Shown here piece after piece: positions 5,502 to 64,000 of a stretch of 64,000 bases of DNA. A program made the translations under genes and the position numbers. Origin of the DNA: Bacteroidales bacterium (GTDB taxonomy: Bacteria > Bacteroidota > Bacteroidia > Bacteroidales > F082); contig OZ223471.1 in assembly GCA_965140775.1 (NCBI GenBank), positions 3,042,198-3,106,197 on the forward strand, read 5' to 3'. Within the stretch, counting starts at the first letter, position 1; each line of letters starts with the position of its first letter. Under the pieces are notes generated by a model. The model did not search any database. It was not told the DNA's origin and was given only the letters and a program-made list of their open reading frames with translations.

Positions 5502-6263
5502 ATGACGAAACCAACCATATTGATTTCCAACGACGATGGTGCCGGAGCCAAAGGACTTAGAAGACTGATTGCCACCATGCGAAAATTGGGAAATGTGGTG
5601 GTGATTGTTTCCGAAGGCCCCATGTCGGGCATGGGACATGCCGTTACCATGCAGCAACCCTTGCGGGCACGATTGGTAGCAGACGAAGCCGGATACAAGG
5701 AATACATCACCAACGGAACTCCGGTGGACAACATTAAAATGGGCAAACACCTGTTGTTGGACAGAGCACCTGATCTGGTGGTAAGTGGCATCAACCATGG
5801 CTCCAATGCGGCCATTAATGTGATATACTCGGGAACCATGGGCGCTGTGCTCGAAGCCGCCATCGACGGTATTCCGGCCATAGGTTTTTCGCTCGACGAC
5901 TATGGAACCCATGCCCGTTTCGATCATTGCGATGAACTGGTGGAAAAAATCACCCGAAAAGTACTTGATCAGGGACTTCCCAAAGGCGTATGTTTAAACG
6001 TCAACTTTCCCAAATATACAGAAGAAGGACCACGGGGAGCCAAAATGTGCAGGCAGGCTCAAGCCCGATGGATAGAGGATTTTGAAGAACGTATCGACCC
6101 CTATGGCCGAAATTATTATTGGATGGGTGGTCGTTTTGAAAATGGTGATGGTCGTCCGGAAACAGATTTAAAGGCACTTTCGGAAAATTACGCATCCGTT
6201 GTGCCTACCCAATTTGATTTTACTGCCCATCAATATGTTACCGAATTAAATTTAGGCCTATGA
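5502..6263 (+). CDS. surE: 5'/3'-nucleotidase SurE
   Basis: The translation MTKPTILISNDDGAGAKGL...SGINHGSNAAINVIYSGTMGAVLEA carries the hallmark SurE N-terminal DDG and GIN.G.N motifs. The start is set at the internal ATG at 5502, which removes the overlap with DUF502. Confidence 0.9.
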   Translation: MTKPTILISNDDGAGAKGLRRLIATMRKLGNVVVIVSEGPMSGMGHAVTMQQPLRARLVADEAGYKEYITNGTPVDNIKMGKHLLLDRAPDLVVSGINHGSNAAINVIYSGTMGAVLEAAIDGIPAIGFSLDDYGTHARFDHCDELVEKITRKVLDQGLPKGVCLNVNFPKYTEEGPRGAKMCRQAQARWIEDFEERIDPYGRNYYWMGGRFENGDGRPETDLKALSENYASVVPTQFDFTAHQYVTELNLGL

Positions 6264-6576: not shown

Positions 6577-6969
6577 ATGATTTCTAAGAAAGAAAATATA
6601 ACTGATTTTTTTGGCACCGCCATTTTTTTGGTATTGTTCTCTCTTTTTGTGGGCTGTTACACACATAGCCCTGAGCCAACCATCCGTAAAGATGTAAAAA
6701 TTAGCATGACCGCAGGTTTGCAAACAAATCAAACTGCGCTAAATAATTTTCAACAGATCAACTGTCAGCATTCACTGATTCCGTTGCTTGATAAATCGTA
6801 CATAAGACTTACAAATCAAGATAACCGACATCAAAGTGACAACCTCAAAAACAATCAACAGTTTTCTTCTCAAAAAAAAGTAGAGAACAGAATTGCCCCT
6901 CAAATACATTTGAGGCAGTTCCGCCAGCCACTACATTACACTTCCGAAGACATCACTTTTTTAAGTTAA
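6577..6969 (+). CDS. hypothetical protein, possible lipoprotein (LFVGC), Q/N-rich
   Basis: This is the internal ATG of the 6286-6969 track ORF. The upstream part of that ORF overlaps 6260-6556 in another frame. There is no recognisable family. Confidence 0.3.
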   Translation: MISKKENITDFFGTAIFLVLFSLFVGCYTHSPEPTIRKDVKISMTAGLQTNQTALNNFQQINCQHSLIPLLDKSYIRLTNQDNRHQSDNLKNNQQFSSQKKVENRIAPQIHLRQFRQPLHYTSEDITFLS

Positions 6970-46786: not shown

Positions 46787-49700
46787 GGGAGGTGCTGTTG
46801 GTACAGAAATCTCCGTCTTTTTCACTGGTAACAGTTAAAGTAACCGTGTAAACCCCTCCTGCTGGGTATTGGTGTCTGAAAGTGGGGCCTGAATCGGTGG
46901 TGCCATCGCCCAGTTCCCAGTACCAGTCTACCAAAAAGTAGCCCGCGGGGGCGATGCTCTCATCAGTGAAGATGATCTTCTGACAGGTGTCTATGGCATA
47001 GCTAAAATCAACTATGGGGGGTTCTACCACGTCGATCATCAGGGTGTCGGCGTTGCTGCAGCCAATCACGTCGGTGACGGTGAGGGTCACCAGGTAGTTT
47101 CCAAAGATGGTGTAGGTATGTGGGGGTGGGTTTTGGTCGGTGCTGGTGGTGCCATCGCCAAAGTTCCACATCCAGGTGACGTTGTCGGTGCTGAATCCAC
47201 TAAAGGTGACTTCGTTGTTCACACACACGGAGCTGATATTGGATACGGCCACCACGTTGGGGGGATCGTTTACCGTGATGGTGACGATGTTGGTGTAGAT
47301 GCTGCCGCATCCGGAGGTTTGCATCAGGCGGTAGTTGGTGGTGGTTTGCAGGGCGTTGGGCTCGCTGTAATCCAGTGATGTGGCGCCTCCGATGGGGGTA
47401 TAGGGTCCGCCTGCCTGTGATTTTTCCCACTGGTAGCTATAGATGCCGTCTGCGCCCGTGGGAACGGTGCCGTGCAGGGGCAGGGTGGGAATGGTGTTAA
47501 AGCAAATGGTTTGGTTGCCGGTGGCGTTTCCTGGTAAGAATTCGTTGTAAACGGTTACGGTCACCGTATTGGTGTTTTCTATTCCACAGCCTGATCCACT
47601 GCTTTGTACTTGTCTGAAGTAGGTGGTGGTGGTCAGGGCTCCGCTTTGGTAATCGATTTGGGTGGCACCGGGAATATCCAAAAAGGTGACATTGTTGGTG
47701 GAACTCTGCCATTGGTAGGTGTAGTTGCCATCGCCTCCGGTGGGGGCGGTTCCCAAGATTGCCGTGGGGATGGTATTGTAGCAGATGGTCTGATCACCAC
47801 TGATGCTGCCCACGTTGTAGTCGGGATGTACATCCACGAAAATGGAGGCGGTGGTCACGGTGCCACAGATGCATATCTGGTTCAGGTGGTAGTAGGTGGG
47901 GGTGGTCAGCAGGCCGGGTTGGTAGCTCAGGTTGGTGGCGCCGGTGATATCGGTGTAGGTGATATCGTCCGTGGAGCTTTGCCACTGGTAGGTGTAGTTG
48001 CCATCACCACCGGTGGGGGGATCGGCACTCACGGGGGCGGGCTGGGTATTGTAGCAGATGAGCTGGTCGCCACTCACGGCGCCGGGGATGAACTCATCCA
48101 GCACGCCGATGGTGGTAGTGGGGGTGAATACAAGTGCACAGGTATTGGTCTGTCGCAACCTGTAATAGGTGGTTTGGGTAAGTAAGGGGGGTTGGTAGCT
48201 CAGGGTGGTGGCTCCGGTGATGTCGCTAAAGGTGATGTTGTCAGTGGAGCTTTGCCATTGGTAGGTGTAAACTCCATCGCCTCCTGTGGGGGCATCGGCC
48301 ACCAGCAGCTGGGGTTGGTTGCTATAGCAGATGATTTCGTCGGGGGCGGGGGCGCCGGCCAAAAATTCATCCCACACGTTGACCGTGATCACCGGGGTTT
48401 CCTTGCTGCCGCAATCGCAGCTTTGTACGTTTTTGAAGTAGGTGGTCTGCAATAAGGAGGTGGGACTCAGGTAGGTCAGGGCCGTGGCTCCGGGGATGTC
48501 GGTGAAGGTGACATTGTCGGTGGAGCTCTGCCATTGGTAGCTGTAGGTGCCTACACCGCCCGTGGGGGCACTTACTTCCATCTGGGCAGGGACGATGTTG
48601 TAGCAGATGGTTTGGTCGGGGGTGAGGGGGGCGCCGGGCTGGTAGTCTTCGATGGTGAGGATCATGTTGTCGCTCTCGCGGCAGCGGATGGCGCTTAGGA
48701 CTTCCATATTGAATTCGATGTCAATAGGATAAGTTATGTTGGGGTCGAAATCCCCCACCACATACACGGGTCGTTCAACGTGCGAATCAAGGAAATATCC
48801 CGCCGGATCTATCGTCGGATCGACTTTGGTCCAATTGATAATATCTCCATTCTGTTCTACAGGTGGTACCAAACTATTGGCAAAATCAAAAGGTAAACCC
48901 ACACATGCTTGTTCATCGGTACCGGCGTCGGCATAGGACCCCTCGCGTACTTCCAACACCATCACGTCGGTTTGGTCGGTACAGGGTGACAGTGCAGTTG
49001 CATGCAACGTAAGTGTAACAAAAGCTATTTCATCAGGTCCGGGAACATAGGTGGGATTTGCCGTGGTTTCATTTATCAGCGATCCTCCCTGTGTGCTGTT
49101 GTGTGTCCACAAGAGGGAACTATAGTTGACAGCATCTGCATCGATGAGTGTGAAAGGAACATCCTCACAGGTAACACGATCGGGACCTGCATCAGCCAGA
49201 CAGGTTCCGTTGATGGTTATTGGCTTTATCACTTGCTCCACACAGAGGTTTAAGGTAACATTATAATTTCCCGGTGCGGTGTAAGTATGAACCGTATTTT
49301 TCCCTGTTCCCATGCTACCATCGCCATAATCCCAATCCCAACCGGTAAAATCAGCATCGCCAATCCCATCGAAACTAACCTGAAAATCCTGACAACCAAC
49401 AGGCGGATTCAAATTAAAATCGAGTCCCGACATATCTACCACCACCTGTTCGTGGGTGGTAGATACGGCACACCCGTTATTATTGGTATAAGTGGAGGTT
49501 ATCAGAAAATTCCCTGCATTTTGAAATTCATGGGTAGTGATGGCATTGGTTCCGGCCTCACCATCGCCAAAATCCCATTGCCAATCCACAATATCAGAGG
49601 TTCCTGAAGCCTCCAGAGTGAGCATCTCGCCCAAACAGATGGTGTCGTTGGGTAACACAGCGAAATCGGCCGCAGGAAGGTCGCTCACCAACAAATGATG

Positions 49701-51884
49701 AACCAGGGTATCGTTACAATTGTTATCATTTACCACGATCAGGGTCACATCGTAATCTCCCGAAGCTCCGTAGGTGTGGGTTACCATCTCTCCATTGTCA
49801 GTGGTCAGGTCACCAAAATCCCAATTCCAGTCGGTAATGTTGGTGTTGGCACTTCCCGTATAGGTGATTTCATCTCCCAAACAACTGATATCGGGCACAC
49901 TAATACTCATGGTGGCATTGGGCGCTTCAAATATTTCTACCTGATGGGTGACGGTGGCAGGACAATTTTCATCGCTTGTGGCCGTGAGTGCGATGGTCTT
50001 CAGTCCAAACGAATTGTACGTATAATTCACATTTTGACCCATACCTGTGTTGCCATCGCCATAATCCCAAGCCCAGCTGTTAATTGGTATATCCGCAGTC
50101 CCGGCAAGGGTCATTTCTTCATCCGAACAAAAAACATTGCCCGGACTTATCCCAAAATCGAGGGTGGGCGTTTGATTGATGGTTAAAGTGTGTTGGATGA
50201 TGTCGCTACACAAGTCGTCGGTGATTACCTCCAGTTGAACGGTGTAGATACCCGGAAGGAGGTACTGATGGGACACATTTTGACCCGCATCCGTATTTCC
50301 ATCTCCAAAATCCCAATTCCAGTCGGTGATGTTACCATTCGCATTTCCCGTAAAATCAATGGGATCGCCCAAACAACTGATGTCGTTGACACTGATCAAC
50401 ATCGAAGCCACAGGAGTTTCGAACACCTCCACCTGATGACTGGTATTGGCAGAGCAATTGTCAACCGTATTTACCAACATGGTGACGGTTTTGAACCCAA
50501 AGGTGCTGTATGTATGCGTTGCCGTTTGGCCAAAGCCTATATTACTGTCCCCAAAATCCCAAGTCCATGAGGCTATGGGTGCGTCGGAAGAACCGGTCAC
50601 GGACATTTCCTGATCGGAACAAAAAGAGTTGCCGGGGGTTATGGTAAAATCGATGGTAGGCGCCTGTGAAATGGTGATGTTGTGCGTTACCACATCCGTG
50701 CACGTATGGTTATTGGTAACGGTTAAGGTAACAACGAAATTTCCGAAGGAGGAATACTGGTGAGAAACCGTTTGACCGGAGGCAGTACTTCCATCGCCAA
50801 AATTCCATACCCAGCTTGTAATATTGGTAATCGGTGATGCGCTAAAGGTAATGTCCTGGTCTGCGCATGCCGTATTGCCCGGACTCATTGTAAAATCCGC
50901 AACCGGGGGAGAAAAGGTTTGTACCACTTGTGAGGTTATTCCCGTACAACTTTCGGAGGAGGTTACAGTAAGTTGTACCGCGTGATTTCCGGGCACGGTA
51001 TAGGCATGACTCACATTCTGACCTGATCCGAAGCTGCCATCGCCAAAGCTCCATGCCCAGTTGGTGATGGTTTGGGTGCTGCTACCCGAAAAACTGACAG
51101 TTTCGTTAAGACAAATTCCTGTAAGTGGGTTCACTGTAAACGATGGACTGGGATTGGGATTGATAACCACTGTTGTGATGGCGGGATCGCTCACTACACC
51201 GTCGATGGTAATCACCACCTGATAATCACCTGCATATCCCAACACCACGTTGGGTCGGGTTGGGTTTTGCAGGGTAGAAAAGAAACCTGCGGGACCTGTC
51301 CATTCGTAGGTAGCTCCGGTGGCATCGGTGGCGTACAACTCGAGAGTTTCGCCCACGCATAGCGGACCATTGTTGCTTACCTGCGGAGGAACAATATCAC
51401 AGTCAGTTTCTCCGGTACCCGAGGACAATTCAAAAGTGATATTACACGGATCATTGGAGTAATTGGTAATCAATAAAATATAGTACTCCCCCACTTGTGC
51501 ATTGGGAATATCGCAATATTCTATGGCATCCGGCAAAAAACTACAATCTACAATTTTGGGGGCAGTGAGTTGACCATCACATGGCGCCTGAGGATCCATA
51601 AAGGGCCCCCAGCAAATAAAGTCGATATCTTTGGAGGGTGTGGAATACATTTTTATCTGGAGGTTGCCCGCGACGGCAATACGCATATGGTACCAAGCCG
51701 GGTTTGGTTGTGAGCCCAAACAACCATAATTCGGACCCAGTTGAGCTTGGCCCGAATTTACTCCTGCGGGAAAGTCATATACAGTGCTGGTACAAAACGG
51801 GTCGGAGGTTTCGCACATACTCGACTGCCCGAAAAGAAAAGAAGTGTAAGCTAATAGAAAGGAAATCAAAAATATTTTTTTCAT
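41604..51884 (-). CDS. giant (3426 aa) T9SS cargo: Cys-rich N-terminal domain, PKD-like repeats, five YxYQWQ repeats, type-B C-terminal sorting domain
   Basis: The product has a signal peptide. The N-terminus reads CETSDPFC...GPNYGCLGSQPNPAWYHM. PKD-like units recur as in the neighbouring gene. The C-terminal 1726 aa are near-identical to those of 30747-41414. Confidence 0.9.
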   Translation of the reverse strand: MKKIFLISFLLAYTSFLFGQSSMCETSDPFCTSTVYDFPAGVNSGQAQLGPNYGCLGSQPNPAWYHMRIAVAGNLQIKMYSTPSKDIDFICWGPFMDPQAPCDGQLTAPKIVDCSFLPDAIEYCDIPNAQVGEYYILLITNYSNDPCNITFELSSGTGETDCDIVPPQVSNNGPLCVGETLELYATDATGATYEWTGPAGFFSTLQNPTRPNVVLGYAGDYQVVITIDGVVSDPAITTVVINPNPSPSFTVNPLTGICLNETVSFSGSSTQTITNWAWSFGDGSFGSGQNVSHAYTVPGNHAVQLTVTSSESCTGITSQVVQTFSPPVADFTMSPGNTACADQDITFSASPITNITSWVWNFGDGSTASGQTVSHQYSSFGNFVVTLTVTNNHTCTDVVTHNITISQAPTIDFTITPGNSFCSDQEMSVTGSSDAPIASWTWDFGDSNIGFGQTATHTYSTFGFKTVTMLVNTVDNCSANTSHQVEVFETPVASMLISVNDISCLGDPIDFTGNANGNITDWNWDFGDGNTDAGQNVSHQYLLPGIYTVQLEVITDDLCSDIIQHTLTINQTPTLDFGISPGNVFCSDEEMTLAGTADIPINSWAWDYGDGNTGMGQNVNYTYNSFGLKTIALTATSDENCPATVTHQVEIFEAPNATMSISVPDISCLGDEITYTGSANTNITDWNWDFGDLTTDNGEMVTHTYGASGDYDVTLIVVNDNNCNDTLVHHLLVSDLPAADFAVLPNDTICLGEMLTLEASGTSDIVDWQWDFGDGEAGTNAITTHEFQNAGNFLITSTYTNNNGCAVSTTHEQVVVDMSGLDFNLNPPVGCQDFQVSFDGIGDADFTGWDWDYGDGSMGTGKNTVHTYTAPGNYNVTLNLCVEQVIKPITINGTCLADAGPDRVTCEDVPFTLIDADAVNYSSLLWTHNSTQGGSLINETTANPTYVPGPDEIAFVTLTLHATALSPCTDQTDVMVLEVREGSYADAGTDEQACVGLPFDFANSLVPPVEQNGDIINWTKVDPTIDPAGYFLDSHVERPVYVVGDFDPNITYPIDIEFNMEVLSAIRCRESDNMILTIEDYQPGAPLTPDQTICYNIVPAQMEVSAPTGGVGTYSYQWQSSTDNVTFTDIPGATALTYLSPTSLLQTTYFKNVQSCDCGSKETPVITVNVWDEFLAGAPAPDEIICYSNQPQLLVADAPTGGDGVYTYQWQSSTDNITFSDITGATTLSYQPPLLTQTTYYRLRQTNTCALVFTPTTTIGVLDEFIPGAVSGDQLICYNTQPAPVSADPPTGGDGNYTYQWQSSTDDITYTDITGATNLSYQPGLLTTPTYYHLNQICICGTVTTASIFVDVHPDYNVGSISGDQTICYNTIPTAILGTAPTGGDGNYTYQWQSSTNNVTFLDIPGATQIDYQSGALTTTTYFRQVQSSGSGCGIENTNTVTVTVYNEFLPGNATGNQTICFNTIPTLPLHGTVPTGADGIYSYQWEKSQAGGPYTPIGGATSLDYSEPNALQTTTNYRLMQTSGCGSIYTNIVTITVNDPPNVVAVSNISSVCVNNEVTFSGFSTDNVTWMWNFGDGTTSTDQNPPPHTYTIFGNYLVTLTVTDVIGCSNADTLMIDVVEPPIVDFSYAIDTCQKIIFTDESIAPAGYFLVDWYWELGDGTTDSGPTFRHQYPAGGVYTVTLTVTSEKDGDFCTNSTSLPVIVPNTPTIYYTWDPEPTCLMDTTFFYGASGTPITDWYWNFDDGHDTTGQYAGHVFDNPGTYDVILYITDTNLCQNSLSQQVTINPIPQVSMQIFDSPTCAQSMTSFQGSADTGIEFWWWDFGDGGISEDQNPVHSYTNGGTYTVTLTATDSAGCSATATGEIIVVPTPTADFSYTMSGCNLFAFTDNSTLPPGYQPYSRLWDFGDGSTSDVPNPVHTYATGGFYDVKLVFTSDSLTYQCSDSITKTVQAPNTPNATFTWAPNPAQAGDNIGFFATSGSTITNWAWDFADGGTATGQNTTHTYTNPGDYDVSLTVTDVNGCTFETVIQVNVGGLPPVDFTWDNACENTPIQFTTDATITDVGAVAIYDWDFGDGTSSNNQDPLHTYLNANMYNVTLTIIDTLGYTNSVTHQVEVMPEPISMFSISSPNCENSETFFEDYSIALSGYLTTWEWDFGDGNTATINFPDDPDVSHIYPGTGTYTAMLTVTTSDGCQATNSQDVTITPSPIAQIDYDAGCMSGPISFHDVSSENGAGTIMAWQWNFGDPASGSSNQSSQSDPTHLFSGPGTYEVTLSIQSQSNCTDADTIEITITDAPEVDFTFTPACMHEPVSFTITDLTGLDQYFWDFGDGHTSQQPDPENTYDSPGDFQVSLTVQTTDGCTATQTQTVTVNPLPQASFEYSQPTCVGDTIFFLNLSNSPNGAIVKWEWDFDDGNTETILAPNGGNTSHVYANDQSYDVTLTVTDSDSCQNTVTRTVISVASPVAEFNWEDACFGQPTQFYDLTNNTPDIGSWYWDFGDPLSGNTNTSTYQNPTHVFSSPGDYTVTLIVTNTQGCDDTITHDLSVNPAPDVSFTMSSDTLCANTPVSFAGTSTAQISTWYWDFGDGGYALTQNADYLYNAPGTYTVTLTVTDLAGCEASTSEQIIVKDPPLANFSYQNACLGDTTYFTDESYSQLGYIAGWEWDLGDGSTANIQNPTHLYATNDDFQVTLIATDNYGCADTIRQWVKVRTRPIAKIESFVQVCDPAGQVYFFDGSEPGADGSPIQTWEWNLNEGYYSTEIDPEYIYDITDTCYQVTLTVTDDNACYSTDTVEVCVFGQLEVEITADQVCLTQPTTFYAHYLPENDSVASYSWNFHDGTPQITTYHDSIQHTFANPGLYNVELMAVDTNGCSAYASLEITIDSLPTPRFSYEAGACDTPMQFTDESINGGNFIQSWLWDFGDPLSTEPNTSTDQNPTHLYSPNDSSYQVKLIVTNFTGCTDSIVQTVYTRACLIADFYVPDTINLCALTEVCFADSSVFLTQNGNITQWDWDFGDGTTESYNSFQSHACHSYQDNQGGTYQVTLTVTGEIGTQTYTNTITKEVLIRPTPMAAIIVQNNCLGDITFFMDGSDNYGDPITSWRWDFGDTSTDADTAIIANPTYLYPAYDNYLTELIVANQWGCTDTTSTEVTIFKPPTAEFSWAETCQGYYTYFTDESTADSAQITNYFWHFGDPYTMDSVSDLQNPYHIYDSIDSYTVTMQITDANFCRSQISHEIEIYPVPTALFTLTEDWEGRQGQVKLDNLSLCDTIDYFWNFDDTYTTTEESPIHQYEYDSDPIYNLTLVATNTYGCPDTLIYPYELLFTGLYVPNAFSPSVADETFNTFKPVGINLSEYKLEVFSGWGNLVFSSTRLENGQVAEGWDGTYEGQPLPTGTYIWRITARFSDDSYWRGSDNGDGNLETHGTVTLIR
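47290..48650 (-). repeat. five tandem ~91-aa (~273-nt) coding repeats with the core GG.G.Y.YQW(Q/E).S.D...F.DI.GAT...Y
   Basis: The motif is read in the protein as TYSYQWQSSTDNVTF, VYTYQWQSSTDNITF, NYTYQWQSSTDDITY, NYTYQWQSSTNNVTF and IYSYQWEKSQAGGPY. The corresponding antisense ccattggta/ccactggta strings recur about every 273 nt. Confidence 0.8.
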
Positions 51885-55764: not shown

Positions 55765-56733
55765 TTACTTTTTCTTCTTTTCAAAAAAATCTTTGTCCTT
55801 AAACAACTGCTTCATTTGGGTACCATTTTTGTCAACAAAAACGGCTTCGGTATTTTGCGTGGAAGTTACCAACATGTTTACTGAGTCTTGCTGATAGGCT
55901 TTTATCACCACCTCTTCCATGCCATCGCCGGTTATGGTCAGCACCTGCGCCAGAGGATACGCTTCGGGTTTGACATCCGTGAATTTGGAACCGTTTTTGC
56001 GTGAGAGCCCGGCGATAAACTGAGCAGCTTTTGTGGAATCAATGGGTTGATTGTCATATTGCCATTTTCCATCATTCAGCTGCATTACGTGACTGTTTTC
56101 TCCTGTATTATCCATGGCGACACGTTGTATCTGACTCTTATCCAGGTTGATCAGGGTTTTGTTTCGGAAGGCATCCATGTCCTTGCCCAAACCAAAACCA
56201 ATCTGACCGTCAATCACATAAACGGTAGGTTCGCCGGTAATGCAGGCGTAAAAAATCATTTCGCCCTGGGGCTGACGACCTCCGGGGTTGGGTTGGGCAT
56301 TTTGTGGCTGGATATAGTCGAATTTACCCAAAATTAAATCGCCCACCAACTTGCCATCGGAAAACATCTCCAGGTGGGTACCTTTGTCGGAGGTAACGGC
56401 AAATTCTTCGTGCGAAGAGGCTTTTTGTGAAGCAATCCGTTTGACGGGAATGGCATTGAGCATGCCCAACGTGCGTTTCATGGTATTGGCATCCGCCGTA
56501 TAGGTTTTCCCTTCACCTTGAATTTTCCAGCCTGCATCGGTTTTGGTCAGGGTAAATGCAGGGGCTCCGTCGGGAGGTGCAATATTCAATTGATCCACCG
56601 TGGCTGTATCGATCTGGGTAAGGGTGGTTTTATAGTTGCTCAAATTTCCGGCAGACCGCTGCGACCACCAGTAAATGGCCACCACCACAATTAAAATGGC
56701 CAGTAACAATAAGTTTCTGTTTTTACTTAACAT
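55765..56733 (-). CDS. DUF4340-like protein encoded downstream of gldG
   Basis: The product has a single N-terminal TM helix (LLLLAILIVVVAIYWW). Its position immediately after gldG (11-nt overlap) is typical of DUF4340 proteins. Confidence 0.6.
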   Translation of the reverse strand: MLSKNRNLLLLAILIVVVAIYWWSQRSAGNLSNYKTTLTQIDTATVDQLNIAPPDGAPAFTLTKTDAGWKIQGEGKTYTADANTMKRTLGMLNAIPVKRIASQKASSHEEFAVTSDKGTHLEMFSDGKLVGDLILGKFDYIQPQNAQPNPGGRQPQGEMIFYACITGEPTVYVIDGQIGFGLGKDMDAFRNKTLINLDKSQIQRVAMDNTGENSHVMQLNDGKWQYDNQPIDSTKAAQFIAGLSRKNGSKFTDVKPEAYPLAQVLTITGDGMEEVVIKAYQQDSVNMLVTSTQNTEAVFVDKNGTQMKQLFKDKDFFEKKKK

Positions 56734-58237
56734 AACCTTCCTCCATTCTTTTATTACGTTGTTTTCTTCTCCATTGCAGTCTGAAAAGTCCATAAATAAT
56801 CACCAACACCAAGGGCAACAGGAAGTTACCCCATTTCATCATCGCTTTTTTGGCGTCGGTAAGCTGATCGAGCGGACGTGAGGTGATGGTTTTGGTTCGC
56901 AATTCTATCAAACCGGTGGCGTCGCTCATCCAGTCGATGGAGTTCACCATTAAACTGATGTTATCGGGTTGCAACTGACGGGGACGTTGTCCGGTTCCGT
57001 TCACGGCGAAATCACCACTGGTTACCACAACAATTTTGGCGTTTTCCAATCCGAATTTACCTTCAAACAAGGCTGCAACCACCTGCTCTCCGTCGGGAAA
57101 ATCGGTACGCACCCAATTGTGCTGCACATCGATGCGCACAGGCAGATTTTGCAATCCCGTGAGTTCAGAAGTTTTGGCCAGCGGGGTATATCTGATGGAA
57201 GTGTCGCCGGTAAACGAAATGGGACTTGGAAAGCCCAACATGATTTGTTCCAAACCTTTGGTGATGCTTACATCAGCAAAATTGGAAATCAGTGGTAAAT
57301 AGGGGAATTTAACGGGAGTTGACATATTGAAAGCTCCCATTTGCTGACTTACATTCACATTTCCACACGAAGCATCCAATACAAATTGGTCGGACACCTG
57401 AATGCCCTTTTTGGCCAGCCATTCCGCCAAATTGGTGTTCACTTTTTCACCCGAAAGGGTTTGGAGGTTGGCATTCACCGTATTGAAAGCCACAAACAGG
57501 TTACCCCCGTTGTTCAGGTATTTGTCGAGTACCCGAAACGCCTCCACATTGAAGGTATCAGCCGGATTGGAAATCACCAACGTACGGAATTTGTTGATAT
57601 CGCGGATGGTATCGCTCAGGAAAACGGGTTCCACCTTGTAGAGCACATCCAGTTCGCCCAACACTTGTTGGTATGCCTCAAGAGCGGGTTCGCCCTGTCC
57701 CTGCACAAAGCCAATCAAAGGTTTATTGCTCACGCTCAGCTTTTTGATGGAAGTGGTGAGGTCGTACTCGATGCTACCCTGGGGATTAATAAAAGGAATC
57801 ACTTCCTTTTGGTTGTTGAGAGAAATAACGGCTCCCATGAACACTTTCTGTTGTTTTACCTCATCCTTTTCGCGGGCTTTGAACAGCATGGGATGAATTC
57901 CGGCAGCCATGGCTTCATTTTCGAGGGTGGGGTCTTTGCCCGGGTCTTCGAATTTAAACACCACATTGCCATGCGAAAGGCTGTTGTATTCCACCAGCAT
58001 GTCCTGAAAATTACGCTTTACCTTGGCCAAATCCGGAGGCAGGTCGGTGGTGAAATAGGCCGTTACGGTGACCGTATTGTCCAGGTCGTTCAGGATGTCC
58101 TTGGTGGCTTTGCTTAATGAATATTGTCCGCCCTCGGTTAGGTCGAACCGAAGAAAAAATTGCTCAGAAATGATGGCTACCACCACAAATATGGCCACCA
58201 ACAACAATACAGATGATAAATATGTTTTCTTTTTCAT
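56723..58237 (-). CDS. gldG: gliding-motility-associated ABC transporter accessory protein GldG
   Basis: 504 aa with N- and C-terminal TM helices flanking a large periplasmic domain. It follows the gldA and gldF genes. Confidence 0.75.
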   Translation of the reverse strand: MKKKTYLSSVLLLVAIFVVVAIISEQFFLRFDLTEGGQYSLSKATKDILNDLDNTVTVTAYFTTDLPPDLAKVKRNFQDMLVEYNSLSHGNVVFKFEDPGKDPTLENEAMAAGIHPMLFKAREKDEVKQQKVFMGAVISLNNQKEVIPFINPQGSIEYDLTTSIKKLSVSNKPLIGFVQGQGEPALEAYQQVLGELDVLYKVEPVFLSDTIRDINKFRTLVISNPADTFNVEAFRVLDKYLNNGGNLFVAFNTVNANLQTLSGEKVNTNLAEWLAKKGIQVSDQFVLDASCGNVNVSQQMGAFNMSTPVKFPYLPLISNFADVSITKGLEQIMLGFPSPISFTGDTSIRYTPLAKTSELTGLQNLPVRIDVQHNWVRTDFPDGEQVVAALFEGKFGLENAKIVVVTSGDFAVNGTGQRPRQLQPDNISLMVNSIDWMSDATGLIELRTKTITSRPLDQLTDAKKAMMKWGNFLLPLVLVIIYGLFRLQWRRKQRNKRMEEGYVK

Positions 58238-58255
58238 GATAGATTCCTTTCCTGA

Positions 58256-58978
58256 TTATGCAAACCGCTTGCGTATGAGCATGGTTTCCGAAAACACCAA
58301 CATAACAAAGGTGATACCTGCAAAGAACAGGACATCACGGGTATCGAGCACGCCACGGGTCATCGACTCGAAATGGGTGGAGGTGCTGAGGTAGTCGAGC
58401 ACATGTCCCGCCATTCCGGGAAGGTTTTGTCCCAGAATGCCAAAAATAATTTGGAAAAACACCCCGATGGAAAGCGCCAGCAAATAGCTCACAATCTGAT
58501 TGTTTCCAATGCTGCTGGTAAAAATGCCGATGCCAATCATCATGGAACTAAACAGCAGCAGGGCCAGGTATCCGCTAAACACCTCTCCCCCATCGATATT
58601 GCCGATGGTTGACAGGGTGATGGGATACACAAAGGTGAGAAACAAGGCCACCAGAATCAGGAGCAGCGAGGCCATGTATTTTCCCATAATTACCTGCCAG
58701 TTGCTCACGGGACGGGTAAGTAGCAATTCGATGGTCCCCATGCGGTTTTCTTCGGAGAGCAACCTCATGGTGAGGGCCGGAATAAAGAAAAACAAGGTCC
58801 AATAGGCGATATTGAAAAATGGCATCAGGGTAGCTTGCTTGATAAAAAAGATGTCGTTGCCATTGATCCAGGTAAAAAATCCGCTGAATCCCAGAAACAG
58901 GATAAGCAGGATATAGGCCATCAGCGAGTCGAAATAGGCCTGTAGTTCACGTTTGGTAATGATCCAGATTTGTTTCAT
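58256..58978 (-). CDS. gldF: gliding-motility-associated ABC-2 permease GldF
   Basis: 240 aa with six TM helices. The N-terminal motif KRELQAYFDSLMAYI is present. The gene lies between gldA and gldG. Confidence 0.75.
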   Translation of the reverse strand: MKQIWIITKRELQAYFDSLMAYILLILFLGFSGFFTWINGNDIFFIKQATLMPFFNIAYWTLFFFIPALTMRLLSEENRMGTIELLLTRPVSNWQVIMGKYMASLLLILVALFLTFVYPITLSTIGNIDGGEVFSGYLALLLFSSMMIGIGIFTSSIGNNQIVSYLLALSIGVFFQIIFGILGQNLPGMAGHVLDYLSTSTHFESMTRGVLDTRDVLFFAGITFVMLVFSETMLIRKRFA

Positions 58979-59029
58979 AAGTAAAAATATTTTGTCGGTA
59001 CCACAAGACGATTCCCGTGGATTCCGCGG

Positions 59030-59974
59030 TTAATTCCTGACGGATGACTCCATCGTTAATTCCTTAAAGATATCTTCCAGCTTGGTTTCCACCGGAATCA
59101 GTTCGGTGAGCACCCAACCCTTTTTCACGCAAAGGTTGAACACGGCCTCATCGAGTTTGGCAGCCGGCGAACCGTCGATTTGGAAGCGATTTTGGTCTTT
59201 GTCGATAAAATCAACCAACTGCGCACCTTCCATTTCCTGAAGCGCTTTGAACACCACATCCGTTTCACCTTTCAGGATTTTTACTTTGAAGATGGCTTTT
59301 CCACTTGCCTGATTGCGCAAATCCTTGGTGGTGCCGTCGGCCACGATTTTTCCTTTGTTGATGATCATGATGCGGTCGCAGGTGGCTTCTACCTCGGCCA
59401 GGATGTGGGAGCTGAGGATGACCGTTTTTTCTCTACCTATTTTACGGATCAGTTCCCTGATTTCGATGATTTGGTTGGGATCGAGACCGGTGGTAGGCTC
59501 ATCCAGGATGAGTACTTCGGGTTTGTGGATCAACGCCTGGGCCAGCCCCACGCGTTGCTTGTATCCTTTGGAAAGCTCGCTAATGCGCTTGTGTTTTTCG
59601 GCTTCCAGACCACATAAGTCGATCACGTTCAACATACTGTCCTGAAGTTGACTTTTGGGAATCCCTTGCAATTCGCCCACAAACTTCAGGTAATCGATTA
59701 CCGGCATATCTTCGTACAAGGGATTGTTTTCGGGCAGGTAACCGATATTTTTCTTCAGCTTTTCGGGTTGATCGTGTATGGAAAATTCACCCACATGAAT
59801 GTCACCCGAATCGGGCACCAGAAAGGTGGTAATGGCTTTCATGGTAGTGGTTTTTCCTGCTCCGTTGGGTCCCAAAAACCCCAGAACTTCACCGGTTCGC
59901 ACGCGAAACGAAATATCATCCACAGCACGCTGTACACCGTAGGTTTTAACCAGGTTTTCAACAACAATATCCAT
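59030..59974 (-). CDS. gldA: gliding-motility-associated ABC transporter ATP-binding protein GldA
   Basis: Walker A GPNGAGKTT, signature LSKGYKQR and Walker B LILDEPTTGLD are all present. It is the first gene of the gldAFG arrangement. Confidence 0.8.
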   Translation of the reverse strand: MDIVVENLVKTYGVQRAVDDISFRVRTGEVLGFLGPNGAGKTTTMKAITTFLVPDSGDIHVGEFSIHDQPEKLKKNIGYLPENNPLYEDMPVIDYLKFVGELQGIPKSQLQDSMLNVIDLCGLEAEKHKRISELSKGYKQRVGLAQALIHKPEVLILDEPTTGLDPNQIIEIRELIRKIGREKTVILSSHILAEVEATCDRIMIINKGKIVADGTTKDLRNQASGKAIFKVKILKGETDVVFKALQEMEGAQLVDFIDKDQNRFQIDGSPAAKLDEAVFNLCVKKGWVLTELIPVETKLEDIFKELTMESSVRN

Positions 59975-60097
59975 AATTTAAGTTCATTAGATGAGTAAAT
60001 GAATAAATTCAGTGCAAAATAAAATAATTCATTTTTCAAGAAAAAGGAATGGCCGTGGGGTTTAACAAATCTTAACAGTAGAAACCAGGCGGTTATT

Positions 60098-60196
60098 GGG
60101 TGAAGGGGAGAGATGGTGAGGGGGTGAAGGGGAGAATTGGTGAGGGGGGTGATGTTCCGTCGCGGTCTGTTTTTTGGGCTTAGGTGGGTTTAGATT
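60098..60196. repeat. G-rich element: 23-24-bp tandem GGTGAAGGGGAGAnnTGGTGAGGGG (about 2.3 copies) plus a GGGTGATGTT...TTTTTTGGGCTTAGGTGGGTTTAGA block
   Basis: This was read directly from the sequence. The second block has a related copy at 61127-61180. Confidence 0.6.
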
Positions 60197-60218
60197 CGAT
60201 GATGGTGGGTATAAGTGT

Positions 60219-60631
60219 TTATTTTCTGATGCTTTGAAGGAATTCGTGAGGTGACATCACAGGTAATTCGGATTTCTTAAAGTCTTTCCCGTTTCTTGTT
60301 ATAATAATGTCGCATTCTGTCCGTAATGCGCTAAAATATTGTAATGCATCTTCAAAGCCGGAAAAGTCTGAGTTTTGTCCTTTTTCAATAATCACTTCAT
60401 CCAATTCAGCTATTTCTGAGATGACTTTGAACTTTCTTAGTTTTTCTTTTGTTTTTTCAAGTCCGTAGTAACTAACCAGAAAATAATTTATCGTTGCATA
60501 AGATAAAGCTGATACAACAATCTGAACAGACCTCTTGTCGGCTAAAGTTGCAATTTTGCGGCTGAAACATAAAACGGATCACGTTCACCGAGAAAATCAA
60601 TCATCACACTGGTGTCTAAAAATAATCTCAT
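60219..60631 (-). pseudogene. PIN-domain (VapC-like) toxin gene interrupted by a 1-nt frameshift in an A4 run
   Basis: Frame 1 reads MRLFLDTSVMIDFLGERDPFYVSAAKLQL*. The -1 frame continues as IATLADKRSVQIVVSALSYATINYFLVSYYGLEKTKEKLRKFKVISEIAELDEVIIEKGQNSDF...ITRNGKDFKKS. One extra A at plus-strand 60554-60557 would restore a 137-aa PIN protein. Confidence 0.7.
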
Positions 60632-60633
60632 GG

Positions 60634-60884
60634 CTATTGATGTTTTTCTTCCAGATGATTTAAGATTTCAGATTTGTAGTCTAAGTCAGCAGGAATTTTA
60701 ATTCCGGTTGACATGCTTTTTACAAAAGGTGAAATTTCAATATCGTTCTCATTTTTTTCATTCTCGCGATCAACAAGTGATCTTAAATAGGATTCAATGA
60801 TTCTTGAAAGACTCCGTTTCTGCGAAGAGTCATATACTTTCGCTTGTTCGATAACGAGTCTGTCCAGTTTGAGCGTTAGTTTTG
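60634..60884 (-). pseudogene. small antitoxin-like ORF (DUF6364-like, from memory) with no canonical start codon
   Basis: My own translation is IKDTKLTLKLDRLVIEQAKVYDSSQKRSLSRIIESYLRSLV...HLEEKHQ*. The first sense codon after an in-frame TAA that matches the family N-terminus is ATC. The stop lies 2 nt before the PIN ATG. Confidence 0.45.
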
Positions 60885-61126
60885 TGTCCTTGATGAAAAA
60901 TTATACGTGCAAATACAATCAATTAGCCCGTATTCAGCAAATTGTTTTTTCTCTTACACTTCCTTCCAAGGTTAAGCACTTGAAAAGTAAGCGATTCCGG
61001 CGCACAACCAAAACTGTTCAATCACCACATCCAAGACGATTGATTACCTGTGATTTAGCCCAACAGGGTTTAAAACTCAATTGAGCGGGTGCTTTCGCTA
61101 AATTCCGGAGTTGATTTACAGGTTGT

Positions 61127-61180
61127 GGGTGATGTTTTCATTGTGGGGTGGTTTTTTTGGGACTTGGGTGGGCTTTAAAA
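61127..61180. repeat. second copy of the GGGTGATGTT...TTTTTTGGG.CTT.GGTGGG.TTTA element
   Basis: It aligns by eye with 60147-60195 at roughly 70% identity. It ends 5 nt from the stop of the ORF at 61185. Confidence 0.5.
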
Positions 61181-61184
61181 CCTA

Positions 61185-61934
61185 TTATGTTTGGGAAAAG
61201 TTTTTTATTTTTTCTAGTCTTGTTTTAACAAATTCATAGACATTTCGAGATTTCATCTCAATAAATGGGTCAATATCATTGTTATCCATAATCAATTGAT
61301 TTACCTCTATTTCCCAAATATAAAAGCTTAATTTATTATTTGGATTTAAAATCCTAATATAATCCGTTAGTTTACTTTTATAATTTTCTTTAAATCCCAA
61401 AGTATCATTATCATAAAATACTTGATAAACAACAATTGCCTGTCCATTCGTATTGCAAGCCGATGCTGTACGATGATAAAATTGATAACTTATTTGATTT
61501 AAAGAGTCATTATCAAATCCATTTGAAAATGGTTTAATTAAGCTTGTCCAATAATTTAGGACTTTAATTCTATTCTCCTTATCACCAGCGCGCTTCCAGT
61601 CATCAATTAAATCTGGTTTAACCTTAACATACTCTGTAAACTTAGCTTCAATAGCAACTTTGAAATCATTGCTTAAAATCATTAAATCTGTCATAGATGA
61701 CTTGCCTATTCCTTGTTTAGGCTTAGTCGGGTATTCAAAGCATAGAATAGGTTTGACGCATTTCAATTCAAGCTTATTGAATAAGTCATTTAATCGATTG
61801 TTTGTATCTTTCCAGAATTGAACTAAAGGAATGCTAGAAGTTCTAAATGAATTAATCTTAGTTCCTGAAAACTGGTCAATAATTGTGTCAAAATCGTAGG
61901 AGTTGGGTTGTCCAAATCTAAGTTCTAAATTCAT
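61185..61934 (-). CDS. hypothetical protein with a PD-(D/E)xK nuclease-like motif
   Basis: 249 aa, encoded in AT-rich DNA. The segment SSMTDLMILSNDFKVAIEAKFTE fits a D...(E/D)xK restriction-endonuclease-like core. Confidence 0.5.
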   Translation of the reverse strand: MNLELRFGQPNSYDFDTIIDQFSGTKINSFRTSSIPLVQFWKDTNNRLNDLFNKLELKCVKPILCFEYPTKPKQGIGKSSMTDLMILSNDFKVAIEAKFTEYVKVKPDLIDDWKRAGDKENRIKVLNYWTSLIKPFSNGFDNDSLNQISYQFYHRTASACNTNGQAIVVYQVFYDNDTLGFKENYKSKLTDYIRILNPNNKLSFYIWEIEVNQLIMDNNDIDPFIEMKSRNVYEFVKTRLEKIKNFSQT

Positions 61935-61990
61935 AGTTTACACATTATCAAGTTATAGTCAATTATTCGCGTGAGTTTTTTAAATTTTGC

Positions 61991-62118
61991 CAAACGGTAA
62001 ACTGCATGATTAGTAGCCTATTGCGGAGCACTTTCCAGTCAAGCTACAAAAAAGCTGAAGCGGGTTACAACCCTTGAATCTACTACGGTCTCGGCTATTA
62101 TTTTTATACATTATTGTG
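61991..62118. repeat. ~128-bp inter-cassette repeat, copy 1
   Basis: It is about 83% identical by eye to 63159-63285. A terminal 27-bp block is identical in both copies: CGGCTATTATTTTTATACATTATTGTG. Confidence 0.8.
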
Positions 62119-62128
62119 CCTAGTTTTT

Positions 62129-63136
62129 TTATTTCCAAGTTACTTTTTTTAATTCCTCAGCTATTAACTTAGTGTCGTTAAAATCGGTGATGGTCAAGTA
62201 ATCTCTTAAGTCTTTGTATCTGTAACCCTGTATTCCTCCGTGAGATGTTTTTCGGAAATCAGTGTCATAGGTTTTGTCTTCTAAAAGGATGTAATATTTT
62301 AAACCAAAATGATTTTCGCCCAAATCATATAATCCATTTTTAAGTCGGTCAATTTGTTTGTCTGTATGTCCTTTGCTATGCATAGTTAAGTCATTTGTAT
62401 TAGCGTCATAGTCAGCGATTATTGTCGTTTCAATTTCCGATATTGTTCTTACAGACTTCCAATTATACAACCCGAAAAATTTAAACTTTTGACTATGCCA
62501 ACTAACTGGACAGTAGTATATTTTGTGCTTTTTATTCCAATTATAAGAGAAACCTGTTGGCACAAATAGCAATTTGTATTCTTCATTGGAGATTAAATTA
62601 CTGCTTATACAGTAATTGCTGAAATCGTCAAGAAGTAACCTCAATTCCGTATCGTGATTGTTCTCTTCGTAAATACCTTCTATGTTTTCAATTAAGTCGG
62701 CGAATACTAAATTGTTAAATTGTATTTTTAGATTAGGGTATGTATCTTTGAGCTTTTTATTTATTTCTAGAACTTCTTTTTCGCCAAATCTAATCGAACT
62801 CAAATGCCAAAGTTGATTCTGACTATTTTCATTAAACACTTTTCCGTACTTAATCAATTTCCCAATAAATTCTTTACTATTCAATTTGGTTTCAATAAGA
62901 ATCTTTGAAGGTTTTACTTCTATATGTCCATCAATCACGCCATTCTTGATTCCAACTTGTTGTCTAAAAATTGGCCGAGGATAATAATATTGGTCAATAC
63001 TTCCTTCGTTCAAACGTTCAATTATTGTTTTGTAATAATCAACATTTAGGTCATTTAACCTAGATAGCATCAATAATACATTGTTAGTGACGGTATTTTC
63101 TCTTTGTGAATATTTTTGAAATTGACTTATTCTCAT
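62129..63136 (-). CDS. hypothetical protein, N-terminal PD-(D/E)xK-like nuclease motif plus uncharacterised C-terminal domain
   Basis: 335 aa, encoded in AT-rich DNA. The segments QRENTVTNNVLLMLSRL...GVIDGHIEVKPSKILIETKL fit an E...D...ExK pattern. Confidence 0.5.
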   Translation of the reverse strand: MRISQFQKYSQRENTVTNNVLLMLSRLNDLNVDYYKTIIERLNEGSIDQYYYPRPIFRQQVGIKNGVIDGHIEVKPSKILIETKLNSKEFIGKLIKYGKVFNENSQNQLWHLSSIRFGEKEVLEINKKLKDTYPNLKIQFNNLVFADLIENIEGIYEENNHDTELRLLLDDFSNYCISSNLISNEEYKLLFVPTGFSYNWNKKHKIYYCPVSWHSQKFKFFGLYNWKSVRTISEIETTIIADYDANTNDLTMHSKGHTDKQIDRLKNGLYDLGENHFGLKYYILLEDKTYDTDFRKTSHGGIQGYRYKDLRDYLTITDFNDTKLIAEELKKVTWK

Positions 63137-63158
63137 ATCTTATTTTTTAAATTAGGTA

Positions 63159-63285
63159 CAACGGTAAATTGTATGATCAGTAGCCGATTGCGTGGGACTT
63201 TCCTGTCAAGTTACACGAATGTTGGAGCGGGCTAAAACCCTTGAATTTACTACTGAGGCGGCTATTATTTTTATACATTATTGTG
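63159..63285. repeat. ~128-bp inter-cassette repeat, copy 2
   Basis: See copy 1. Here the last 15 bp of the repeat encode the C-terminus (HNNV*) of the ORF ending at 63271. Confidence 0.8.
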
Positions 63286-64000
63286 GGTAGTTATTAGTTC
63301 TTTTGCTATTTCTATTTTTGCTCCGTCAATATCTTTTTGATTAGTTTCATTATTTTCAATTGATTCAATAATCTTAATAGACATACCAACATTATTAATT
63401 TTTTCTAAACTTTTCGAATGTTGAATTGCTTGAGTAATTGTTGATTTGTAAATAAATAAAAATGTTGCACCAATAAATTCTGTAATAATACCAGCTATAA
63501 TTCCGATATCCTCATTCTTAATCTCTTTGTCATAAAACACACCAGCGATAAGAATTGAAACTATTAACAAAAACCCCATTATCATAACAGCAATACTTAA
63601 TTTATATATACTGTTTACTTGTTCAATATTTTTGTTATAATATTTTTGAAGTGTTGCATTTGCTAAATCCCAAACTGGCAGCACTTCATTTGGAGTCTCT
63701 TTAATTTTCTTCTTTGCATTACTAATATCTTGTTCGATATCTTCTGATTCACTTGCTTGCTTTTCTTTTTCAATTAAATAAGCAATGGCAATCTTAACTA
63801 AAATTATTAGGACAAATGCAACTAAGATAATCCTCAAATACAGTCGTTGCCACATCGGAAAATTATCTATTACATCATTTAAAAAGCCCGAGATTTGATT
63901 ATAATCATAAATTCCAATTAATTTCTTACACTCCTGTTCAAACTCTTCATTTGTTTTGAAACTCACATCCTTTATCTCATGTAATTTTACAATCAGTTTA
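63271..64000 (-). CDS. multi-TM protein with coiled-coil segments, resembling 2TM effector domains (SLATT / TRADD-N-associated type); 5' end possibly outside the window
   Basis: The track ORF starts at GTG 63966, but the frame stays open to position 64000. TM helices are LRIILVAFVLIILVKIAIAYLI, LSIAVMIMGFLLIVSILIAGVF and IGIIAGIITEFIGATFLFIY, followed by KSTITQA...L. Confidence 0.5.
   Translation of the reverse strand, partial: KLIVKLHEIKDVSFKTNEEFEQECKKLIGIYDYNQISGFLNDVIDNFPMWQRLYLRIILVAFVLIILVKIAIAYLIEKEKQASESEDIEQDISNAKKKIKETPNEVLPVWDLANATLQKYYNKNIEQVNSIYKLSIAVMIMGFLLIVSILIAGVFYDKEIKNEDIGIIAGIITEFIGATFLFIYKSTITQAIQHSKSLEKINNVGMSIKIIESIENNETNQKDIDGAKIEIAKELITTHNNV

Follow-up and report, generated by a model that had tools for sequence, protein, structure and literature searches.

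The last 4 kb of a 64,000-nucleotide (nt) stretch from the genome of a Bacteroidales bacterium (contig OZ223471.1, positions 3,042,198 to 3,106,197; the whole stretch is referred to as the window) carry three open reading frames (ORF1, ORF2 and ORF3) separated by two copies of a repeat. This tail, from ~60.0 to 64.0 kb, is very probably the distal end, abutting gldA, of a chromosomal integron-type cassette array on the minus strand, in which the repeat serves as an attC-type site. The case rests on sequence comparison: it draws together a family of sites with conserved boxes, arrays of such sites, complementarity between the start and the end of cassettes, shared cassettes whose homology breaks at GTT, cassette content that differs between related organisms, and recombinases and attI-like junctions in relatives. 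The three ORFs are independent cassettes, not parts of one system.

Two repeat copies in an AT-rich tail

The guanine-plus-cytosine (GC) content of the window is 0.29-0.37 between 60 and 64 kb as against 0.41-0.58 in the remainder, in agreement with the AT-rich tail described in an initial annotation of this DNA. The three same-strand ORFs reported there all lie on the minus strand and are read from right to left, that is, from high to low coordinates: ORF3 (63271 to beyond 63999) is open at the window edge, has its N-terminus outside, and encodes at least 243 amino acids (aa); ORF2 (62129-63136) encodes 335 aa, and ORF1 (61185-61934) 249 aa. The repeat, first described as a pair of ~128-bp elements, is found at 61976-62128 and 63143-63295 (81% identity over 153 nt, with starts 1167 nt apart), and its corrected length is 131 nt from box to box in each copy (62119-61989 and 63286-63156). 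A 27-mer at one end of the element, CACAATAATGTATAAAAATAATAGCCG, is indeed identical at 62092-62118 and 63259-63285, whereas none would be expected from 100 shuffles. Read in gene direction this block encodes the terminal H-N-N-V-stop of ORF3 and begins 10 nt past the stop of ORF2, precisely as had been noted.

In the layout that we propose, a site would run from an AAC box (R'') through an unpaired spacer, an 18-19-nt arm (L''), a core of ~70 nt, the complementary arm (L') and a further spacer to a GTT box (R'); L'' would account for most of the invariant 27-mer. Copy 2 of this family-A site (63156..63286, minus strand; nhmmer expectation value (E) 2e-36) would form the 3' end of the ORF3 cassette. 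Its boxes are R'' CCACAAT (63286-63280) and R' GTTGTAC (63162-63156), its 27-nt block (63285-63259) takes in the tail of R'', the spacer and the L'' arm, and the crossover is predicted between G63162 and T63161; the final codons of ORF3 overlap R''. Copy 1 (61989..62119, minus strand; E 7e-35) would likewise form the 3' end of the ORF2 cassette, with R'' GCACAAT (62119-62113), R' GTTTGGC (61995-61989), the 27-nt block at 62118-62092, and a predicted crossover between G61995 and T61994.

The repeats are direct and not inverted, which excludes the likeness to a shufflon that the initial annotation had suggested, as well as any other invertible switch. The template-repeat/variable-repeat pair of a diversity-generating retroelement was considered and rejected: the substitutions are of all kinds and not adenine-specific, and the overlap between ORF3 and the repeat amounts to only five codons.

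A widespread family of sites

When a 20-mer of the invariant block was searched for in a single genome of each species, at least 120 loci matched, most of them from Bacteroidota and related phyla; the repeat occurs well beyond the window. Among the matches listed are Bacteroidota of the Marinilabiliales, Prolixibacteraceae, Flavobacteriaceae, Cytophagales and Saprospiraceae, cultured strains of Marinifilum, Labilibaculum, Maribacter, Lutibacter, Persicobacter and Cyclobacterium and, from further phyla and groups, Ignavibacteria, Balneolaceae, Cloacimonadota, Marinimicrobia and a few odd bins.

Alignment of 98 full-length members over ~130 nt gives a uniform layout: variable bases ending in AAC, then AAT, the arm GTATAAAAATAATAGCCG, a conserved core of ~70 nt, the arm CGGCTACTATTCTTATAC, ~5 bases, GTT, and again variable bases. 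AAC is conserved in 82 of the 98 members and GTT in 81 (consensus SMYAAC...GTTRKS). With the alignment profile, nhmmer finds 171 copies in 121 sources, including 40 loci with 2-4 copies; wherever such multi-copy loci were inspected, the copies shared a strand, with spacings usually of 1-5 kb. In sequencing run X1, from the source organism, the bin of copy 2 stands at ~45 times the flanking depth, corresponding to ~45 copies, while related organisms reach 70-125 times. Since the repeat is found in at least 120 loci and at ~45-fold depth in the source run, it is neither local nor rare, and the integron-like, repeat-delimited cassette array first proposed from two copies gains support from all of these.

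An ordinary intergenic repeat (a miniature inverted-repeat transposable element (MITE), a repetitive extragenic palindrome, an element resembling a bacterial interspersed mosaic element, or a terminator module), spread by transposition or duplication and unrelated to cassettes, would also be multi-copy, partly palindromic, AT-rich and intergenic; the unconvincing fold of the window copies and a second multi-copy element that adjoins at 61005-61191 can be read in the same way. However, the copies have neither terminal inverted repeats nor target duplications, they are always co-oriented with the ORFs and stand at ORF 3' ends, and neither the rule that governs cassette ends nor the GTT breakpoint of a shared cassette (see below) is expected of a MITE. 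We consider this explanation very improbable.

Several further features of the sites were observed. At many cassette starts the semi-conserved sequence ATTTAAAAA follows ~9-12 nt past GTT (in the window at 63140-63152 and 61973-61985); this sequence could either belong to the site or represent an A-rich region for translation start, as is typical of Bacteroidota. Sites of ~70 nt occur at L130-L132 (~5645-5714, 5359-5428 and 1833-1902, respectively) and at L125 (~6640-6710): they keep both ends of the family model, the central core being missing or replaced by another short loop, and stand in arrays of the same kind with the same recombinase family alongside. Long same-strand arrays at L135 (1-17859) and L128 (1156-9804) contain several attC sequence types. 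Family members are also present in bins labelled archaea, Saccharibacteria, Proteobacteria or Firmicutes (L034 and L108, Woesearchaeota; L030, Saccharibacteria; L013, L022, L073, L095 and L100), which could reflect mis-binning of short contigs or true transfer across phyla. At other loci the arm is abutted by GTGTGCC..., which resembles the 5' end of a group II intron (L087, L105, L084 and L007 on the top strand; L031, L083, L096 and L101 on the bottom strand). The junction, ...TATTCTTAT followed by GTGTGCCGAG, or its reverse complement beside AATGTAT, lies directly 3' of the arm on either strand, and ORFs for a group II intron reverse transcriptase (RT)/maturase are present in several of the intron-bearing loci.

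Cassette ends and cassette mobility

In integrons the crossover falls between G and TT of the core, so that the start of a linear cassette is complementary to the inverse core that closes the same cassette, and not to the adjoining site. If a tyrosine recombinase likewise cuts between G and TT in the present sites, then each cassette should start with TT plus bases that pair with its own far AAC box, and this complementarity would be the scar of a circular intermediate. Beyond AAC and GTT, the two boxes of the same site match at chance (2.01 of 6 positions compared to 1.94 for shuffled partners). The start of a cassette compared to the next downstream AAC box, on the other hand, averages 3.0 of 6, shuffled pairs giving 1.81±0.35, and only 4 of 5000 shuffles reach 3.0; individual pairs of consecutive sites score 6/6 (L108, L097, L040) or 5/6 (L024, L057, L023).

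The window follows the same pattern. The ORF2 cassette (61995..63161, minus strand, 1167 bp) starts with GTTGTACCT, which complements its own R'' (AGGCACAAT) at 5 of the 6 positions beyond AAC/GTT, counted by hand. The ORF1 cassette (61009..61994, minus strand), whose 3' limit is uncertain and lies at 61009 or 61065, starts with GTTTGGCAAA, complementary at 9 of 10 positions to TTTCCCAAAC, a sequence that overlaps the ORF1 stop. An ORF1-type cassette at locus L135 (Bacteroidia, GCA_009930305.1) scores 10/10 (start GTTAGGCAAA, end TTTGCCTAAC). The ORF1 homologue in that cassette shares 92% protein identity with ORF1 and sits in a different array: DNA homology between L135 and the window starts exactly at CGTT, and the DNA upstream is unrelated.

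In a gammaproteobacterium (L133 4590-7140, GCA_014647215.1), a homologue of ORF2 with 78% identity forms a cassette flanked by classical attC sites (TATAAC...GTTATAC). The ORF2-type cassette gene thus moves across phyla, between classical integrons and arrays of the Bacteroidota type. ORF1 is found alone in L135, and ORF2 alone in L133, L134 and L138. Contigs from sequencing runs of two related organisms (X3 and X4) match the window from 57000 to 61084, from gldG through the toxin-antitoxin genes, and contain none of ORF1-3. Because each ORF occurs elsewhere as a separate cassette without the others, the proposal in the initial annotation that they form a single uncatalogued system is not supported. 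Cargo is diverse throughout: the 728 ORFs of at least 120 aa from 120 loci form very few recurrent clusters.

Secondary structure and strand asymmetry

Folded with DNA parameters, typical family members form an R stem of 6-7 bp (AAC/GTT), unpaired spacers of 3 and 5 nt, and an L stem of 19 bp. The bottom strand is predicted to be the stabler one in 77 of the 98 members (mean -14.65 vs -13.27 kcal/mol, a matter of prediction only), with a mean z of -2.3 compared to shuffles. Two A·C oppositions in the long stem of the top strand correspond to G·T wobbles on the bottom strand, and the C,C pair responsible is kept in 91 of the 98 members. The same asymmetry is evident in 76 other AAC-stem-GTT hairpins of related arrays, which are unlike the family in sequence and mostly ~120 nt long: their 195 non-Watson-Crick oppositions comprise 108 A·C, 8 C·A, 6 G·T and 5 T·G. 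Since the mismatch is conserved on one strand, the substrate would be a folded single strand, and recombination would proceed via the folded bottom strand. In the classical attC sites around the ORF2 homologue in L133, the two arms differ in length.

A structured RNA (a leader, a riboswitch-like element or a small RNA) that regulates the downstream ORF, with the three ORFs and the repeats making up one co-regulated defence system, would account for the position of each copy upstream of an ORF, for the semi-conserved sequence after the GTT box, and for the nuclease-like and two-transmembrane (2TM) effector-like features of the ORFs. Yet no Rfam family reaches its gathering score anywhere in the 64-kb window, RNAalifold returns zero consensus pairs for the 98 members, in at least 120 loci the element stands behind unrelated genes, and the ORFs are found apart from one another elsewhere and have no match in PADLOC: this is an extremely improbable explanation.

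Recombinases at the heads of related arrays

Since gldA marks the end of an array that runs from high to low coordinates, any recombinase must lie beyond 64 kb; the recombinase and attI of the source genome would be located there. The contig of the source run reaches ~577 nt further than the window, and an attempt to extend it found no fetched locus that matched the window outside the repeats.

Relatives are more informative. A tyrosine recombinase of ~280 aa is encoded divergently from the first cassette in L097 and L115, and the same divergent recombinase is found in five of six further species-level contexts of the clade (L121-124, L125, L128/129 and L130-132), the exception being P0064, at a contig end. 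In L003, from a Bacteroidetes genome, a longer relative of the recombinase is co-directional with the array. The attI-like junctions of these loci are complementary to the AAC box at the far end of the cassette concerned: GAC/GTTGTGCAC to GTGCACAAC in L115 (9/9), GAC/GTTAGCGTT to AACGCTAAC in L121 (9/9), GAT/GTTAGGCTT to AAGCCTAAC in L128 (9/9), GAT/GTTGCCACAC to GTGTGGCAAC in L125 (10/10, with a second score of 9/10), and AAC/GTTGGCAAC to GTTGCCAAC in L003 (9/9), where a later cassette, starting with GTTAGCTGCC, matches its own box GGCAGCTAAC at 10/10.

The best model for the array-head recombinases is that of the integron integrase (TIGR02249), with 166-216 bits in separate stretches, below the cut-off of 265, and the best-scoring solved structure is the integron integrase VchIntIA (2a3v). 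A tblastn search for canonical IntI, for which the probe was an approximate IntI1 sequence, returned nothing but C-terminal fragments and short recombinases that do not have the insertion. A metagenome scan for relatives of the recombinase yielded only proteins of 34-54% identity. Of the 80 loci concerned, two have weak family-A matches and about four have similar arrays of ~120-nt hairpins; most have no array, so the link between recombinase and array is specific to the clade.

Four metagenome contigs that encode distantly related forms of the short recombinase (L141 1710-2478, L150 5433-6789, L161 5648-8398 and L203 140-261) contain AAC-stem-GTT hairpins of ~120 nt that differ in sequence and have the same two A·C positions; the hairpins lie 3' of the recombinase gene and on its strand in L141, L150 and L161, while a single hairpin lies just upstream of it in L203. 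At several loci a gene for a ~280-aa tyrosine recombinase adjoins that for an IS91-like (Y2) transposase (L009 3388-5491, L028 808-2881 and L078 5264-7296), or IS91-like ORFs overlap or just follow the recombinase gene (L091 854-2247). Such pairs are probably separate mobile elements that have landed in cassette arrays.

Arguments against an integron-type array, and an Xer-type alternative

A number of observations weigh against the interpretation of the tail as an integron-type array. The first concern the window itself. The 64 kb contain no recombinase. Both repeat copies have the GTT of R', but their R'' ends in AAT instead of AAC; in both, the L' arm is altered and shortened to 16 nt (ACTRATCATRCARTTTACC), a variant that is also common to L111 and L009. 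Neither copy folds better than shuffles (z +1.2 and -0.5 for the sense strand, +0.6 and -0.4 for the other), and the canonical hairpin is absent from the minimum-energy fold of either. The short TAGTAG/CTACTA pairing pointed out in the initial annotation does exist. The canonical arm is present in other copies of the source organism (loose ends of the source run), and the degenerate copies in the window may no longer recombine. No excision junction was seen in the assembled contigs of the runs, the only form in which the data were available.

The second group concerns the family. Strict integron boxes are rare, with RYYYAAC in 12 and GTTRRRY in 15 of the 98 members. In classical integrons the additional domain of IntI reads bulged bases. 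The predicted bottom-strand L stem of typical members has no bulged (extrahelical) bases, again as a prediction only, and the array-head recombinases have no counterpart of VchIntIA residues ~180-245, the IntI-specific domain. These variant features, bulge-free sites and domain-less recombinases, are seen in the relatives and not in the window itself.

The missing domain and bulges are also what would be expected if the same arrays worked by other chemistry, with double-stranded dif-like sites of an Xer-type recombinase and cassettes that are Xer-exploiting modules comparable to integrative mobile elements exploiting Xer (IMEX) and to pdif modules. The array-head recombinases (L115, L097, P0024 and others), at ~280 aa, align end to end with XerA (4a8e), the recombinase gene of Marinimicrobia lies in conserved housekeeping synteny, and the scarcity of arrays beside the 80 more distant relatives fits as well. 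The sites themselves, however, are hairpin-type elements of ~120-130 nt and not 28-bp sites; the strand asymmetry of their arms (108 of 195 oppositions A·C against 8 C·A, and the C,C conservation noted above) fits only a folded-strand substrate; the crossover between G and TT and the AAC/GTT boxes are of the integron type; a cassette gene is shared with a classical integron; and an integron integrase, 2a3v, is the top solved structure. We therefore judge double-stranded Xer chemistry to be unlikely.

Integrons and attC arrays are already well known, and the site family suggests a variant of them. Specifically, a recombinase that heads arrays and has no IntI-specific domain suggests an undescribed form of integron. 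More tentatively, the window repeat may belong to a distinct and widespread integron-like branch, present in Bacteroidota, Ignavibacteria, Marinimicrobia and related phyla, with sites of ~120-130 nt whose recombinogenic strand is marked by two conserved G·T wobbles instead of bulges, and with a short IntI/Xer-like recombinase that has no IntI domain: a proposal that we regard as possible but somewhat short of probable.

Cargo of the cassettes

The nuclease-like motifs that drew attention to ORF1 (DLMI...IEAKF) and ORF2 (DGHIEV...IETK) are present, and family alignments of 29 sequences show no variation at their D, E and K residues. Against DUF6946, ORF1 reaches 25 bits (cut-off 27), and against REase-ARP 17 bits; its homologues carry PF22187 and PF22558 and sometimes REase-ARP; judged by homology, ORF1 is a DUF6946-family protein with PD-(D/E)xK-like residues D83, E96 and K98, which lie on consecutive strands of a confident model (predicted local distance difference test (pLDDT) 90.8). 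In ORF2 the invariant residues D69, E82 and K84 are placed on consecutive strands of a PD-(D/E)xK-like N-terminal domain (model pLDDT 86.6), and the C-terminal domain is beta-rich and without a fold match; the family, of 335 aa and with no Pfam domain, retains 60-88% identity across phyla. A Foldseek search against PDB gave no match below E 0.05 for either model, the weak ones including restriction enzymes and HamA. The 2TM effector-like feature noted in ORF3 is real: this membrane protein has a TRADD-N-associated 2TM domain (PF20712, E 4.8e-11, 43 bits vs a cut-off of 24.3). A check against PADLOC, which the initial annotation had recommended, returned 0 families at E<=1 for each of ORF1-3, hence no defence-system match, and NCBIfam gave nothing meaningful for any of them.

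Cargo in related arrays includes SduA_C (Shedu-like), AAA_15, AbiEi/AbiEii, an AAA_13 ATPase, a retroelement composed of bAvd, a reverse transcriptase and Lcl_C, and a ScoMcrA_N-like gene. The cassettes of the window likely carry putative conflict genes that cut nucleic acids or damage membranes, and a defence role of ORF1-3 is plausible; chromosomal integrons have been reported to store anti-phage defence genes (10.1101/2024.07.02.601686).

The distal end of the array and its flank

Behind ORF1 the array continues with a second type of junction element (61002..61198, minus strand), with TTTCCCAAAC as R'' at 61198-61189 and two candidates for R', GTTGGGC (61064-61058) and GTTGTGC (61008-61002). 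The segment 61005-61191 (core 61050-61139) is itself multi-copy, at ~25-65 times the flanking depth in X1 and also in related organisms, and its copies diverge directly after the AAC at 61189-61191. It is present in none of the 138 fetched loci and is lineage-specific.

Next follows a decayed toxin-antitoxin cassette (60219..60882, minus strand). The full-length frame of the DUF6364 antitoxin (60637-60882, E 2e-20) lacks a start codon of the ATG, GTG or TTG type, and the PIN-domain toxin (60219-60631; PIN_3 E 5e-13 on read-through) is interrupted by a 1-nt frameshift near 60553, after which the X3 and X4 contigs have an extra T. An intact VapBC-like cassette is thereby excluded, though both domains are present.

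Between the array and gldA lies a terminal non-coding stretch (60040..60215, no strand assigned). It holds G-rich tandem units of 24 nt (GGTGAAGGGGAGA...) at 60091-60138, the number of which differs in X4 (a 48-nt step back, with gaps of 8-9 nt), and a block resembling 61125-61180; the stretch is possibly what remains of a final site. Neither this stretch nor 61002-61198 qualifies as a clean attC hairpin, no closing stem being predicted for either.

The chromosomal flank (56723..59974, minus strand) comprises gldA (59030-59974), gldF (58256-58978) and gldG (56723-58237), the best full-length matches of which are TIGR03522, TIGR03518 and TIGR03521, respectively, each below the equivalog cut-off. 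These genes place the host in Bacteroidota and mark the distal end of the array. Because the sites in the window are degenerate and the toxin-antitoxin cassette is decayed, this end of the array is probably old and sluggish. Its cassettes would be mostly a silent stock.

Elsewhere in the window, the minus strand has two giant ORFs in tandem, one of 3555 aa (30747-41414) and one of 3426 aa (41604-51884), which coincide with GC-rich blocks of strong GC skew. The antisense ORFs within them (32481-33851 and 43338-44708) are of identical length, which suggests that the two giant genes are near-duplicates.

Significance and relation to known systems

The analysis turns 4 kb of hypothetical, AT-rich sequence into mapped mobile cassettes with exact boundaries, and the three ORFs are best tested singly, not as one system. 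Integrons have been reported in Bacteroidota (PMC8618304), and among complete Bacteroidetes genomes IntegronFinder 2.0 found only In0 elements plus one complete integron, in Salinibacter (10.1101/2022.02.28.482270). Integrons are thought to be rare in the phylum, yet a single site family marks arrays in at least 120 loci, with dozens of copies in the source organism. The additional domain of IntI is treated as defining and necessary in a passage of PMC9668308 (citing Messier and Roy 2001), and in the open-access literature we found neither this site family described nor any account of sites that have conserved G·T positions and no bulges, or of recombinases that head arrays but do not have the domain.

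If domain-less recombinases do act on bulge-free sites, the definition by which integrons are searched for misses a large reservoir of cassettes, some of them shared with classical integrons, and it becomes clear why surveys based on the domain report almost no complete integrons from Bacteroidetes. The arrays could then stand midway between Xer systems and integrons, it would become possible to test whether integrons arose from Xer-type recombinases, and a new structure-specific recombination system would become available.

Several systems already described invite comparison. One is the cluster of attC sites lacking integron integrase, or CALIN (Cury et al. 2016, PMC4889954), for which we required two or more attC sites within 4 kb, with no integrase inside the same distance. 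The window has two to three sites within less than 4 kb of one another (the two of family A at 1167 nt), and its 64 kb, on the distal side, contain no integrase. As the window stops short on the proximal side, the absence of an integrase covers the distal side only.

With Xer/dif modules (IMEX, and the pdif modules of Acinetobacter plasmids) the related arrays share an Xer-like recombinase without the IntI insertion and site-bounded modules beside its gene. The sites of Xer/dif modules, however, are double-stranded core sites of ~28 bp, in alternating orientation in the case of pdif, whereas those described here are directly oriented hairpin elements of ~130 nt with integron-type AAC/GTT boxes and strand asymmetry.

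Group IIC introns target attC stem-loops. In a similar manner, group II introns with RT/maturase ORFs sit directly 3' of the site arm at related loci; in contrast to group IIC-attC introns, the insertions follow the 3' arm on either strand, and the window contains no intron.

The arrays also resemble sedentary chromosomal integrons such as the superintegron of Vibrio cholerae, with its ~125-nt attC sites, the V. cholerae repeats (VCR). Both have long same-strand arrays of single-gene, mostly promoterless cassettes, each ending in a lineage-conserved attC of ~120-130 nt; both have a crossover between G and TT and cassette starts complementary to their own inverse core; and in both, toxin-antitoxin cassettes accompany AT-rich cargo of unknown function, the content of which varies between relatives. 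In the arrays described here, typical sites have two A·C/G·T positions in place of bulged bases, the related array-head recombinases do not have the IntI additional domain, and the copies in the window are degenerate. Moreover, the host belongs to Bacteroidota or a related phylum, and the site, including its central core, is conserved not within one genus but across orders and phyla.

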